Made by a program: the position numbers and the translations under genes. A model generated the notes under the pieces. The model was not told the DNA's origin. It made no database searches and was given only the letters and a program-made list of their open reading frames with translations. A stretch of 40,341 bases of DNA from an uncultured Pseudomonadales bacterium (GTDB lineage: Bacteria; Patescibacteriota; Microgenomatia; UBA1400; RBG-16-45-19). Positions 32,167-40,341 of this stretch are shown here, in pieces (the first letter of the stretch is position 1; every line of letters begins with the position of its first letter). The DNA lies in assembly GCA_964554085.1 (NCBI GenBank), contig CAZKMY010000001.1, forward strand, positions 4,949 through 45,289. Reading direction: 5' to 3'.

Positions 32167-32841
32167 ATGAACACTCTTCCTATTCGCGCCACCACCCAAG
32201 ACCACTTAGACATTGAGGACATTCTTCAAAACATTGTTCTTCTCAAAGATGGTGGGGCCGCCATGATTCTTCGCGTTGGTGCCGTCAATTTCAATCTTCT
32301 TTCTGAAGAAGAGCAGGATGCCATTATTTTTGCCTACGCCGCGATGTTAAATTCCCTCACCTTCCCCACCCAAATCCTGATTCGATCTCAACAAAAAGAT
32401 ATCACTAATTATCTCAAACTTCTTGAGAACCAAGAACACACCCAGGCAAACCCCCTCATGAGAAACCGCCTCAATTCCTACCGACAGTTTGTTGAGAATT
32501 TAGTTAAAGAACGGCGAGTTTTAGACAAAAAATGTTACGTCATTATCCCCTTCTTCCGCACCGAACTTGGCCTCGCTGCCCCCTCTTTTTCACTTCCTGG
32601 AAAAAAGAAGGAAAGTAAAGGACTTCCCTACAGTAAAACATACATTCTTGAAAAAGCGCTCGCCAGTCTCGAACCAAAACGGGATCATTTATTGCGCCAA
32701 TTCTCGCGCATCGGTCTCAATTCCCGACAACTATCCACCCGAGAGCTCATTGAACTGTTTTACGCTATCTACAATCCCAAATCAGCAGCTCCCGCACTTA
32801 CTTCCCAGTCGGACATTGCTCCTCTCACCCAATCCCGCTAG
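32167..32841 (+). CDS. Stand-alone protein resembling the N-terminal (non-ATPase) domain of VirB4-type proteins
   Basis: 224 aa. The layout HLDIEDILQNIVLLKDGGAAMILRVGAVNFNLLSEEEQ...FPTQILIRSQQKDITNYL...KKCYVIIPF parallels residues ~40-190 of the VirB4 ORF at 38446 (VSIRDIIAPEAIEV...SLDISMHIFPVDGKSIMDDL...YQFGLYVTIT). There is no Walker motif. Confidence 0.35.
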   Translation: MNTLPIRATTQDHLDIEDILQNIVLLKDGGAAMILRVGAVNFNLLSEEEQDAIIFAYAAMLNSLTFPTQILIRSQQKDITNYLKLLENQEHTQANPLMRNRLNSYRQFVENLVKERRVLDKKCYVIIPFFRTELGLAAPSFSLPGKKKESKGLPYSKTYILEKALASLEPKRDHLLRQFSRIGLNSRQLSTRELIELFYAIYNPKSAAPALTSQSDIAPLTQSR

Positions 32842-32866
32842 TTTTCCTCACTAAAAAACAGAGCGT

Positions 32867-32938
32867 AAACCCATCACTTTTCAGCACGCAGTCATCTGAG
32901 CAAAGCGAAGGCGCGAGCACCGCAAAAGTCGGTGGGTT
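32867..32938 (+). repeat. Hairpin repeat, copy R4
   Basis: Outer stem is AAACCCATCAC with GTCGGTGGGTT. Inside is acttttcagcacgcagtcatctgagcaaagcgaaggcgcgagcaccgcaaaagt. It lies between convergent genes. Confidence 0.65.
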
Positions 32939-32950
32939 AAGCGACAAAAT

Positions 32951-37923: not shown

Positions 37924-38382
37924 ATGACAGCCGCCTATACCCTAAACCCTATCCCCTCCACCCTCGTCATTCACACTGATGGTGGTTCTCGTGGAAATCC
38001 CGGACCTGCCGCCACGGGAATTGTAATCCTTACGGAAAACGATGAAGTAATTCATGAGTTTGGCACCTATTTAGGCACTGCCACAAACAACGTTGCAGAA
38101 TATACTGCCGTCATTGATGCCCTAAAATGGCTTACCACCAATGACTTAGGACTCAACACTCATGACTTATCACTTTCCTTCAAGCTTGATTCTAAACTTG
38201 TTGTAGAGCAACTCAGTCATAATTGGAAGATTAAAGAATTTCATCTTGAGAAACTCGCGCAAACAGTATGGGAAATGCTTAAATCGAGCCATATATCAGC
38301 TAAATTTGAGTATATTCCTCGTGCACAAAACGCCGCCGCTGACCGCCAGGTCAACTTAACTCTTGATGCTGCGCTAATATAA
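37924..38382 (+). CDS. rnhA: Ribonuclease HI-family protein
   Basis: ATG 37924, 152 aa. Motifs are IHTDGGSRGNPGPAATG, NNVAEYTAVIDAL, LDSKLVVEQL and AQNAAADRQVN. It carries two in-frame low-complexity inserts. Confidence 0.75.
   Translation: MTAAYTLNPIPSTLVIHTDGGSRGNPGPAATGIVILTENDEVIHEFGTYLGTATNNVAEYTAVIDALKWLTTNDLGLNTHDLSLSFKLDSKLVVEQLSHNWKIKEFHLEKLAQTVWEMLKSSHISAKFEYIPRAQNAAADRQVNLTLDAALI
37934..37965 (+). repeat. Pyrimidine-rich element, CCCTRT subfamily, in frame at the rnhA N-terminus
   Basis: cctataccctaaaccctatcccctccaccctc, read as YTLNPIPSTL. Confidence 0.6.
38142..38173 (+). repeat. Pseudo-tandem element, GACTYA subfamily, in frame in rnhA
   Basis: atgacttaggactcaacactcatgacttatca, read as NDLGLNTHDLS. 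Confidence 0.65.
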
Positions 38383-38389
38383 AAATATA

Positions 38390-38445
38390 GTCTTCCATAC
38401 TTCCCATACTTCTATACCTCCCATACTTCCCTGTATACTATCCCC
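38390..38445 (+). repeat. Pyrimidine-rich pseudo-tandem element (CATACTTCC type) filling the rnhA-virB4 spacer
   Basis: gtcttccatacttcccatacttctatacctcccatacttccctgtatactatcccc. The -10-like TATACT (38434-38439) lies 6 nt before ATG 38446. Confidence 0.65.
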
Positions 38446-40341
38446 ATGCAGCTGCCATCGCTTTTGCGTGTCAAAAAAACCGCTACCAGTACCGACACTA
38501 CCCCATCTCCTCAAACAGTGAGCGTGTCTCCTTCAGCGCAAGACATGTTGGTTAAAGGGTTAGTTTCCATTCGAGATATTATTGCTCCAGAAGCCATTGA
38601 AGTTGAGTTTTCTTATCTCAAGTTTGGTAATGCCTTTACCCAAACCCTGTTTATTGCGGGGTATCCGCGTTTTGTGTCTGCCAACTGGCTTTCTCCGCTG
38701 ATCAACTTCAACCATTCATTAGATATCTCCATGCATATTTTTCCCGTCGACGGGAAATCAATTATGGACGATCTACGGCGAAAAATTACTGAAATGGAAG
38801 CGGAAATTCAATCCGACATTCGTCGCGGTCGTATTGCCAATATTGATACCCAAGTCAAACTTGAAGACGCCCACATGTTGCAGGAACAACTTGCCAAAGG
38901 GGCTGAACGGTTTTATCAATTTGGTCTCTATGTTACGATCACTGCTGACACACTCGACGAGCTTCAAACAATCTCCGCCCAAGTTCAAAGCACACTCAAT
39001 TCCCTCCTTATCATCAGTAAAAAAGCTTCACTCCAAATGGAGGATGGCTTCAAAACTACCCTTCCACAAGGCCTCGACCGACTTCAAATCACCCGCAATA
39101 TGGACACCACCTCTCTTGCTACCACGTTCCCTTTCACGTCATCCGATCTTACGTCAGATTCGGGAATTCTCTACGGCATCAATGAACACAATGATTCCTT
39201 AGTCGTCTTCGATCGCTTTAATCTTGAAAACGCCAATATGGTGGTTTTTGCCAAATCTGGTTCTGGTAAATCGTACGCCATCAAACTTGAATCGCTTCGC
39301 GCGCTCATGTTTGATACCGAGGTGATTATTATTGACCCCGAAGGCGAATATGTAGATATGGCGGGGGCTGTTGGTGGGGACTACGTTAATTTCAGCTTCA
39401 ATTCCCCCATCAAAATTAATCCATTTGATTTATCTCAAGTGTATGATTCAGAAGAAAACGAATTAGGTTTAAAAATTCTTTCACTGCACACGCTGCTCAA
39501 AATTATGTTGGGTGACACGAGCCCTGAAGAAGAAGCAATTCTTGATCGCGCGCTTGTGGCCGCCTATCAATCTAAAGGCATTACCCCTGATCCTGCCACC
39601 CAAAAAAATCCTCCTCCTCTCATGGAGGACCTGTACAAAATGCTTATTGGGATGGAATCGCAAAGTGCTCAAAACGTAGCCAGTCGTCTGGAAAAATTTA
39701 TCAAAGGCTCTTTCCGAGGCATTTTCGATCAACCCTCTTCTCTATCCATCAAAAATCAATTCACTGTCTTTGGTATCAAAGATATGGAAGATGCCCTACG
39801 TCCAATTGCCATGTTTATGATTCTCGATTTCATTTGGACTCGAGTTAAACGGGATCTAAAACGCCGACTTCTCGTTGTTGATGAGGCGTGGTACCTCATG
39901 CAATATCCGGATTCAGCTGCTTTTCTCTACGGTATTGCCAAACGGGCCCGTAAATACTACCTCGGCGTCACCACAATTACGCAAGACGTTGAAGATTTTA
40001 TCCATACTGACCAAGGTAAAGCTATCGTTTCTAATTCCTCACTCCAATTACTCATGAAACAATCCACCGTCGCCCTCGACAGTCTGGCTCACGCCTTTAA
40101 TTTATCTGAGGGAGAGCGTCGCCTACTCCTTTCTGCTGACGTGGGCGAAGGTCTTTTCTTTGCCGCCCAAAATCACGTAGCCCTTCGAGTTGTTTCTTCC
40201 CCCGAAGAACATCAATTAATCACCTCAAATCCTCAAGAAATTGCCGCCCGTCGTGCCCAAGCAGCATCTGTCAAAACCGCCCCGACCCAACAACCGCCAT
40301 CTCCCGCTCCCGTACCTTCTTCAAATCCCCTCCCCGCCCCC
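38446..40341 (+). CDS. virB4: VirB4/TrsE-type T4SS ATPase (3' end outside the window)
   Basis: Not in the ORF track because it has no stop. Manual translation is open for 632 codons from ATG 38446 to the window end. Walker A is VVFAKSGSGKSYAIK (about 39241-39285) and Walker B is RRLLVVDEAWYLM. Also present are GVTTITQDVEDF and a Pro-rich tail. Confidence 0.85.
   Translation, partial: MQLPSLLRVKKTATSTDTTPSPQTVSVSPSAQDMLVKGLVSIRDIIAPEAIEVEFSYLKFGNAFTQTLFIAGYPRFVSANWLSPLINFNHSLDISMHIFPVDGKSIMDDLRRKITEMEAEIQSDIRRGRIANIDTQVKLEDAHMLQEQLAKGAERFYQFGLYVTITADTLDELQTISAQVQSTLNSLLIISKKASLQMEDGFKTTLPQGLDRLQITRNMDTTSLATTFPFTSSDLTSDSGILYGINEHNDSLVVFDRFNLENANMVVFAKSGSGKSYAIKLESLRALMFDTEVIIIDPEGEYVDMAGAVGGDYVNFSFNSPIKINPFDLSQVYDSEENELGLKILSLHTLLKIMLGDTSPEEEAILDRALVAAYQSKGITPDPATQKNPPPLMEDLYKMLIGMESQSAQNVASRLEKFIKGSFRGIFDQPSSLSIKNQFTVFGIKDMEDALRPIAMFMILDFIWTRVKRDLKRRLLVVDEAWYLMQYPDSAAFLYGIAKRARKYYLGVTTITQDVEDFIHTDQGKAIVSNSSLQLLMKQSTVALDSLAHAFNLSEGERRLLLSADVGEGLFFAAQNHVALRVVSSPEEHQLITSNPQEIAARRAQAASVKTAPTQQPPSPAPVPSSNPLPAP

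Follow-up and report, generated by a model that had tools for sequence, protein, structure and literature searches.

We analysed a stretch of 40,341 nucleotides (here called the window; positions 4,949 to 45,289 of contig CAZKMY010000001.1, assembly GCA_964554085.1) from a metagenome-assembled genome (MAG) of an ultra-small bacterium of the class Microgenomatia (Patescibacteria), order UBA1400, in which the genes for a type IV secretion system (T4SS) are interrupted by a block of genes of the kind found at a replication origin (oriC). The family to which this MAG belongs is referred to below as the source-genome family. The window is a single contig (C1:4949-45289) within a 91.5-kb scaffold and is flanked by gaps of 100 N at both ends; the MAG itself comprises 1.165 Mb in 135 contigs with a G+C content of about 44%.

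The plus strand encodes a PrgI/VirB3-like protein with a C-terminal CarboxypepD_reg-like domain (31055..32146; PF12666, E=2.3e-7), followed by a 224-aa TrsD-like protein that resembles the N-terminal domain of VirB4 (32167..32841; assigned by sub-cut-off NCBIfam matches and Foldseek). After a convergent spacer of 109 nt (32842..32950), the putative site that virB4 has left, dnaN (32951..34063; PF00712, PF02767, PF02768) and dnaA (34346..35749; PF00308 with E=3.6e-61, PF08299, PF11638) are found on the minus strand. They enclose a 282-nt spacer (34064..34345) with eight DnaA-box-like 9-mers, which is a candidate oriC. The start of dnaA is at 35737 or 35749, and the alignment with relatives begins at about residue 25 of the longest open reading frame (ORF). 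The plus strand then carries rpmH (35932..36072; L34, 46 aa, identified by sequence reading and by tblastn matches in relatives), rnpA (36082..36402; PF00825), yidD (36378..36614; PF01809), yidC (36666..37439; PF02096, E=3.5e-48), a jag/khpB-like gene with KH and R3H domains (37452..37916; PF13083, PF01424) and an rnhA-like RNase H gene (37885..38382; PF13456 and PF00075, matching from residue 26), whose real start probably lies downstream of a heptamer micro-repeat at 37931-37964. A plus-strand gene for the VirB4 ATPase (38446..40341; PF19044, NF045971, PDB 4AG5) follows after a spacer of 63 nt (38383..38445) and runs into the scaffold gap with 632 of about 633 codons. The next scaffold piece carries a gene for an 873-aa DUF4012 protein, the L25 gene and more housekeeping genes, and thus the genome's own order is rnhA, virB4, DUF4012, L25.

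A preliminary description of this DNA had listed the same genes, and all of them were found at the positions it gave, using Pfam, NCBIfam and sequence reading. Its distance of 5.6 kb between the end of the trsD-like gene (32841) and the start of virB4 (38446) was likewise reproduced. Together with VirB2-like pilins further to the left, VirB4, the TrsD-like protein and PrgI/VirB3 make up a T4SS set of the type known from the candidate phyla radiation (CPR), all of it within 28 kb, with virB4 set apart by the origin block. As in relatives, this T4SS is located on the chromosome beside dnaA, dnaN, rnpA and rpmH.

Gene order in related genomes

Forty relatives (G-numbered) were searched with VirB4, DnaA and PrgI-like queries, and 80 VirB4 loci (L-numbered) were taken with 10-kb flanks and the source-genome proteins mapped onto them, giving 81 loci together with the window. 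In the order that we call type B, prgI, the trsD-like gene and virB4 on the plus strand face dnaN and dnaA on the minus strand, and rpmH, rnpA, yidD, yidC, jag and rnhA are followed by the DUF4012 gene. This order was present at 24 of the 81 loci, ten of which (type Bx, as opposed to the 14 of type B proper) carry an insert of 3-5 kb after virB4. Type A, with 38 loci, is like type B except that dnaA-dnaN is inverted (prgI-trsD-virB4-dnaA-dnaN), and all its genes are co-directional. The split order of the window, type C, has prgI and the trsD-like gene (+), then dnaN and dnaA (-) through to rnhA, then virB4 (+) and the DUF4012 gene. It was found at seven loci, all of the source-genome family: the window and six independent MAGs of other studies (L036-L041). 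The remaining 12 loci were left unclassified for gene order. In five genomes of the same family (G001-G005) dnaA (-) was also found upstream of virB4 (+), with prgI beyond dnaN wherever the contig permits, which corresponds to type C.

Outside the source-genome family, the trsD-like gene and virB4 are close neighbours. At 61 such loci the gap between them had a median of 12 nt, was at most 15 nt in 34 cases and was replaced by an overlap of 1-4 nt in several. The type B relatives have virB4 in the interval between the trsD-like gene and dnaN, abutting or overlapping the 3' end of dnaN; L048, for example, shows this overlap, and there rnhA is followed directly by the DUF4012 gene and L25. The upstream position of the PrgI-like gene relative to the trsD-like gene is also conserved in relatives. 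Compared with type B, therefore, type C differs just by virB4, which in the same orientation now occupies the rnhA-DUF4012 spacer.

The arrangement was also tallied class-wide, in 121 Microgenomatia genomes from 62 families. VirB4 was present in 118 of the 121. Of the 96 genomes that have both genes on one contig, about 88 had virB4 at most 10 kb from dnaA. In about 83 genomes virB4 faces dnaA convergently, as in type B, and no type C order was seen among the 121 genomes outside the source-genome family.

The preliminary description had stated that an origin-type gene block interrupts the T4SS locus, and had called this compatible with a rearrangement, an inversion or insertion that brought the apparatus next to oriC, or with selection for origin-proximal gene dosage. 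The interruption is borne out by the gene order, and the T4SS genes are contiguous elsewhere, the trsD-like gene and virB4 being adjacent in relatives outside the family. The split is indeed derived, but it is not recent, as all sampled genera of the family have it. The proximity to dnaN and dnaA did not arise in this event, as it is found order- and class-wide, and the comparison shows, instead of an inversion or an insertion of the origin block, that virB4 alone was relocated to the rnhA-DUF4012 spacer with its orientation kept. Conservation of the split in deep relatives, which would have spoken against a recent rearrangement, was not seen; among the sampled genomes the split is confined to the source-genome family.

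Some side observations were made on the sampled loci. Type A (within L053-L115) forms one large clade with a single origin in both trees described below, and its DnaA-box cluster has remained within the dnaA-dnaN spacer at roughly half of the loci and is upstream of dnaA at others. The MAGs from which the related loci come carry labels such as Microgenomates, Woese-, Shapiro-, Pace-, Chisholm- and Cerribacteria. Many titles among L036-L115 read 'uncultured Pseudomonadales' or 'Gammaproteobacteria bacterium' despite the Microgenomatia-specific locus, and these names look mis-assigned.

Phylogeny and age of the split

The type C loci formed a single clade in the VirB4 tree (Shimodaira-Hasegawa-like approximate likelihood ratio test, SH-aLRT, 99), which requires one change of gene order, and also in the tree of DnaA and DnaN (support 100), where the sister L045 has the contiguous type B order. 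Type B loci were found on either side of the midpoint root. Because of this distribution, the type B order of the sister and the class-wide convergence of virB4 with dnaA, type B is, as judged from the trees, the ancestral order, and the split would have arisen once at the base of the source-genome family. The clade pattern and the contiguous sister argue for vertical descent with one translocation.

Within the type C clade the identity goes down to about 74% for VirB4 and about 61% for DnaA. The split is old, since it is common to all sampled genera and VirB4 has diverged to this extent. VirB4 of the source-genome family is 62-75% identical to its orthologues in neighbouring families and has no long stem branch in the VirB4 tree, and in both trees the family groups with the same contiguous-order lineages.

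VirB4 and the TrsD-like protein

The product of the displaced gene matched PF19044 (E=7e-26) and the CD1110 family model NF045971 with 398.5 bits against a cut-off of 325, and its profile matched PDB 4AG5 with E=7e-59. The Walker A residues G272, G274, K275 and S276 and the pair D479/E480 are invariant across 21 orthologues, and virB4 remains under strong constraint. The scaffold gap C1:45290-45389 (100 N) hits the last codon or two of the gene, at window position 40341. A 95%-identical relative (L037) has a virB4 of 633 aa that continues gap-free into the same DUF4012 gene; the window's virB4 can thus be taken as essentially complete and the scaffold as correctly joined. An ORF of 705 aa for virB4 in the scaffold was rejected as an artefact of read-through of the 100-N gap.

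The VirB4 ORF aligns solely to positions 176-733 of the NF045971 profile, and the N-terminal domain is not in the same polypeptide. Positions 2-133 of this CD1110 model were weakly matched by the separate 224-aa ORF. The two-gene state of an ATPase and an N-domain-like protein is ancestral to the class, as all relatives show it likewise. For the 224-aa protein, NCBIfam gave VirB4_plasma (positions 128-280, E=1e-8), TrsD (E=5.1e-7) and CD1110 (positions 2-133, E=9e-6), all below cut-off; the TrsD/TraD model NF041427 scored 29.7 bits with a cut-off of 200. A Pfam search and a PDB sequence search with the profile of the protein gave no match. Its AlphaFold2 model had a predicted local distance difference test score (pLDDT) of 76.5, and the ten best Foldseek matches of this model were chains of R388 TrwK/VirB4, with probabilities of 0.80-0.98 and weak scores (E=0.014-0.1, query TM-score TMq 0.32-0.45). 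Homologues of the 224-aa protein with 43-61% identity were found directly upstream of virB4 at the 61 loci outside the source-genome family.

The source genome has a single virB4. In a minority of other genomes a second, divergent VirB4 paralogue with 41-45% identity was observed away from dnaA (G019:C4, G015:C11, G003:C10, G030:C1, G014:C14 and about ten class-level genomes), and it may come from a second T4SS or an integrated element. We also observed that several other Microgenomatia families have a virB4 ORF of 1220-1330 aa, with an intein and a LAGLIDADG homing endonuclease at the P-loop region. This is based on L116:640-4581 (G040) and L117:950-4621 (G094), with Pfam matches to Intein_splicing and LAGLIDADG_3 at E values of about 1e-16 to 1e-17; G011, G035, G073, G097 and G119 probably carry a virB4 intein as well.

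Junctions and putative virB4 promoter

The 63-nt spacer between rnhA and virB4, which forms the left junction of the insertion, contains a CCATACTTC micro-repeat in three exact copies (38395, 38404 and 38421) and degenerate ones. According to the preliminary description this spacer consists entirely of the repeat; its length (38383-38445) and the repeat copies were confirmed, but 'entirely' is slightly overstated. As a relic of the junction the repeat was rejected: the upstream copies are missing in the 95%-identical L037, and the spacers of other family members are unrelated. The CCATACTTC repeat is species-specific. Breakpoint repeats at about 10.7, 32.9 and 38.4 kb, which the preliminary description had envisaged, were not found; the search for words shared between the junctions yielded only low-complexity A/T words and a heptamer micro-repeat that is dispersed genome-wide and does not mark a breakpoint.

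An extended -10-like motif, TGTATACT, is located in this spacer 7 nt before the ATG of virB4, and a -10-like motif (TGTATACT, TATAAT or TACACT) was present close upstream of the virB4 ATG in most of the readable type C loci. This suggests, from the motif and its position, that virB4 may have an independent transcript with a short leader or none.

Similar elements were observed throughout the window: a TG-n-TAnAAT-like element stands only 6-12 nt ahead of the start codon in many genes that come first in their operon, and these have no Shine-Dalgarno sequence (10780-10796, 18822-18837, 21950-21966, 27592-27608, 36648-36665 and 38430-38445), which suggests that leaderless or very short-leader mRNAs may be widespread. 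The dispersed heptamer micro-repeat forms arrays (CCCTAAA / CCCTATA / CCCTGTA) at 35889-35925, at 37931-37964 and in the next scaffold piece (equivalent to 40442-40480), with 30 sites genome-wide. The CCCTAAA-type arrays occur in spacers and inside ORFs, and in the cases checked they are on the C-rich strand of their contig. A second heptamer family (TGACTTA / GGACTCA) was seen at 36607-36647 and 38128-38182. Both families may be related to tiny in-frame repeats in fpg.

Replication origin and strand skew

Fifteen sites in the window match the DnaA-box sequence TTATCCACA with at most one mismatch, and eight of these are clustered at 34122-34344 within the dnaA-dnaN spacer. About 0.08 would be expected in these 223 nt at the window-wide density. 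The spacer also has an AT-rich stretch (34081-34120), and in 43 of 63 related loci the densest box cluster was again in the dnaA-dnaN spacer.

The GC skew is one-signed over the 91.5-kb scaffold, with a C-rich plus strand and values from -0.3 falling to about 0, and the skew at third codon positions (GC3 skew) was negative for genes on either strand. The same one-signed skew around dnaA was found in the closed Ch65 genome (G039, CP047901, 801,504 bp), where the skew reaches -0.6 and the GC3 skew -0.75, and in Ca. Collierbacteria (G020, MFAS01000001, 1,089,434 bp). The preliminary description had proposed cumulative GC skew for locating the origin, with a minimum elsewhere counting against it. 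The cumulative curve proved to be monotonic over the scaffold and cannot by itself place an origin there. The test does not apply as formulated, since the skew stays negative to the left and to the right of dnaA, which is a known trait of the lineage.

A step in the skew was nevertheless detected, from -0.24 to -0.14 with a local change point at 34052; this change point varies with the range analysed (10 kb, 34 kb or 48.5 kb). A clear GC3 step came only with control for gene strand: across dnaA the GC3 skew of plus-strand genes went from -0.37 to -0.24 (p=0.003) and that of minus-strand genes from -0.56 to -0.26 (p=0.001). Of 47 related loci, 45 had an upward step across dnaA/dnaN (mean +0.12), and in 24 the skew truly changed sign. 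Gene orientation is divergent around the dnaA region. Because of the DnaA-box cluster, the skew step in relatives, the genome's own GC3 step and the divergent gene orientation, the dnaA-dnaN spacer is probably a bidirectional origin, overlaid on an unexplained strand-wide excess of C. As side observations, the skew was also one-signed through the dnaA region in L016-L031, and a residual step at dnaA was present in G017.

The head-on transcription of the T4SS relative to the fork, as suggested in the preliminary description, agrees with the relatives that have a clean skew switch, in which the lagging-strand (head-on) side carries prgI, the trsD-like gene and virB4; this state is class-wide and does not stem from a recent inversion. 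In the source-genome family, the move puts virB4 on the co-directional side.

Other genes of the window

The left part of the window is a housekeeping block on the minus strand (85-10873) with NnrD-like and recF-like genes, fpg, a glycosyltransferase gene, a 5'-3' exonuclease gene, a K+ channel gene, ftsH and genes for a tRNA-binding protein and a SpoIID-domain protein. Two VirB2-like T4SS_pilin genes on the plus strand (10797..11673; PF18895, E=1.6e-4 and 8.5e-10) mark where the T4SS region begins on the left and are followed by uppS and mevalonate-pathway genes and then a sigma factor gene. Seven T4SS_pilin paralogues form an array further downstream (16578..19215, plus strand), with PF18895 matches in all seven ORFs (E=4e-5 to 2e-10). 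Next come three large proteins without a family match and an 817-aa protein that carries an M23 peptidase domain at its C-terminal end (27609..30062, plus strand; PF01551, E=2.1e-9), a candidate cell-wall hydrolase of the T4SS; homologues of this M23 protein are found near virB4 in some relatives. The last gene before prgI encodes a 326-aa protein (30068..31048, plus strand), which gave no match in Pfam and NCBIfam and is assigned to the T4SS core operon from its position.

Among the scanned ORFs of the window and the 11 kb downstream of virB4 no relaxase or VirD4 match was found; the remaining genome was not searched. The strand bias noted in the preliminary description was reproduced, with 14 plus-strand and 4 minus-strand ORFs at 10.8-32.9 kb, 12 of 13 ORFs on the minus strand to the left of this block and 36 of 46 on the plus strand to the right of dnaA.

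Discussion

Taken together, the data are very probably best explained by an ancestral prgI-trsD-virB4 unit facing dnaN-dnaA, from which virB4 alone was translocated once in the source-genome family. The ancestral order would have been prgI, the trsD-like gene and virB4 on the plus strand, dnaN and dnaA on the minus strand, and then rpmH, rnpA, yidD, yidC, jag, rnhA, the DUF4012 gene and L25. In the common ancestor of the family virB4 would have been shifted by about 5.5 kb over the origin block into the rnhA-DUF4012 spacer, with its orientation kept. The most likely route may be a duplication of virB4, or of virB4 with the origin block, and a later loss of the redundant copies; we infer this because duplication plus loss is the simplest way for two neighbouring blocks to change places without turning round. 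From that time on, virB4 has probably had its own transcript, starting from the -10-like element close before its ATG, and VirB4 presumably continues to form one apparatus with its TrsD-like and PrgI-like partners, whose genes are on the other side of oriC.

Several observations weigh against this explanation or parts of it. No breakpoint repeats were found in a search for k-mers of at least 9 nt, direct or inverted, that the junctions have in common (10.7, 32.9, 35.8 and 38.4 kb, plus the one after virB4). No virB4 remnant was seen between the trsD-like gene and dnaN, where the spacer measures 0-109 nt in the family, and no genome with both copies, as an intermediate would have, was present among the sampled relatives. 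That the 224-aa protein is a homologue of TrsD or of the VirB4 N-domain depends on sub-threshold matches, and hhalign of its family against the VirB4 family of the source genome gave no signal; this homology is reasonable but not proven. A consensus promoter scan gave no more sites than shuffled sequence, so that the promoter call for virB4 is weak. In the source scaffold there is no sign change or cumulative minimum of the GC skew at dnaA, and oriC function is not proven. The class-level tally, finally, was made by hand and eye from two result tables.

Other explanations of the split were considered. Seen in this genome alone, where the origin block interrupts the locus and the T4SS genes are oriented opposite to the left housekeeping genes, the arrangement could be taken for a recent inversion or insertion that carried the T4SS to oriC or placed the origin block inside it. 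We consider this highly improbable: the adjacency of T4SS and dnaA is class-wide and published, every genus sampled from the family has the split, at VirB4 identities down to about 74%, all blocks keep the orientation of the contiguous type, which makes an inversion unnecessary, and the junctions are without repeats. For a MAG in 135 contigs one might think of faulty assembly or scaffolding as the cause of the split, the more so as 100-N gaps bound the window, with one at the virB4 end. The genes from the trsD-like gene through dnaN, dnaA and rnhA to virB4 are, however, on one gap-free contig, the identical order is found in six independent MAGs and in G001-G005, and L037 crosses the virB4-DUF4012 junction gap-free, which makes an artefact barely conceivable. 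Alternatively, the original virB4 could have been lost and a foreign copy inserted after rnhA. Extra copies do circulate in the class, as seen from the divergent VirB4 paralogues in some relatives, but these are clearly distinct from VirB4 of the source-genome family, and the latter is 62-75% identical to that of neighbouring families, groups as in the DnaA+DnaN tree and has no long stem. Such a xenologous replacement is very unlikely.

It may also be questioned whether dnaA-dnaN is the active origin, or whether replication is unidirectional, in which case 'split by origin' and 'head-on' would be misnomers and the block a conserved gene cluster. This is supported by GC and GC3 skews that are negative on both sides of dnaA in the 91.5-kb scaffold and likewise in the closed Ch65 and Collierbacteria genomes, and by the monotonic cumulative skew of whole chromosomes in UBA1400 (Kadnikov et al., 2020). 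The eight DnaA boxes in the spacer, a cluster conserved in 43 of 63 loci, speak against it, as do the upward skew step in 45 of 47 loci with a sign switch in 24, the strand-controlled GC3 step of the genome itself and the divergent gene orientation, and we regard it as unlikely. The conclusion on gene order is independent of whether dnaA-dnaN is the active origin.

In CPR bacteria the T4SS is thought to be central to host-dependent life, and its position beside oriC has been read as a gene-dosage device. In the source-genome family virB4 is on the opposite replichore side from its partners, which would make the family useful for probing ideas on dosage and head-on conflict. The family is also a natural experiment. 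The tight coupling of trsD and virB4, intact in all the other lineages of the class that were sampled, has long been broken here with both genes retained; because the genes have been separated for so long without the loss of either, their co-transcription or translational coupling is not essential. One could go further and suppose that the T4SS core serves a function class-wide by lying next to oriC and pointing towards it, and that selection favoured the transfer of virB4, under a promoter of its own, to the co-directional side as an escape from conflict or coupling. We find this rather doubtful; if true, the head-on placement next to oriC could tie how the secretion machine is expressed to the initiation of replication or the passage of the fork. 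If replication in UBA1400 is unidirectional, the 5.5-kb hop would also switch virB4 between first- and last-replicated status. Otherwise the split is a gene-order detail inside an already described system.

That system has been treated by Quinonero-Coronel et al. (2025, bioRxiv 10.1101/2025.01.22.634366; PMC12102498). According to the available part of their text, the T4SS of CPR bacteria is MPF-FATA-derived, with TrsD, PrgI/VirB3, VirB6 and VirB2-like pilins near virB4 and a relaxase usually absent, and in Microgenomates it is often close to dnaA, dnaN, rnpA and rpmH, for which an origin-proximal dosage was proposed. As far as described there, the window shares VirB4, a putative TrsD homologue, PrgI/VirB3, the PF18895 pilins, a wall hydrolase and the location near dnaA, dnaN, rnpA and rpmH. 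A lineage with the origin block between trsD/prgI and virB4, or the orientation relative to the fork, is not reported in that part of the text. The position of the T4SS beside the origin and the dosage idea are thus already known. What comes on top is modest: virB4 displaced in this one family, and a conserved orientation of the T4SS towards oriC.

Functional evidence for such a system comes solely from the saccharibacterium Ca. Southlakia epibionticum ML1, whose T4SS genes are summarised there (PMC12102498) as essential for epibiotic growth. This CPR epibiont has homologous parts (virB4, trsD-like, prgI and virB6), but it belongs to a different class from Microgenomatia, and the comparison made here covers the components.

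For UBA1400, Kadnikov et al. (2020, PMC7143001) described a one-signed G/C strand disparity of the whole chromosome, and unidirectional replication has been suggested for this order. The source scaffold, G039 and G020 are likewise one-signed through dnaA. The step at dnaA that is seen in the source genome is not discussed in their paper, and the source genome is too fragmented for a chromosome-wide curve.

The rvh T4SS of Rickettsiales is like the window's in lacking one contiguous operon, and it is functional. It is described as many islands and duplicated components spread over the genome, whereas in the window one gene is displaced by 5.6 kb with the origin block in between. Compared with the TrsD/TrsE of pGO1 and the full-length CD1110-type VirB4 of Firmicutes, the two genes of the window together would be the counterpart of a single long VirB4 or of a TrsD+VirB4 pair, with the TrsD and N-domain matches below cut-off. 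In these Firmicutes elements the two parts are fused or adjacent, whereas in the window they are probably separate transcription units and flank oriC.

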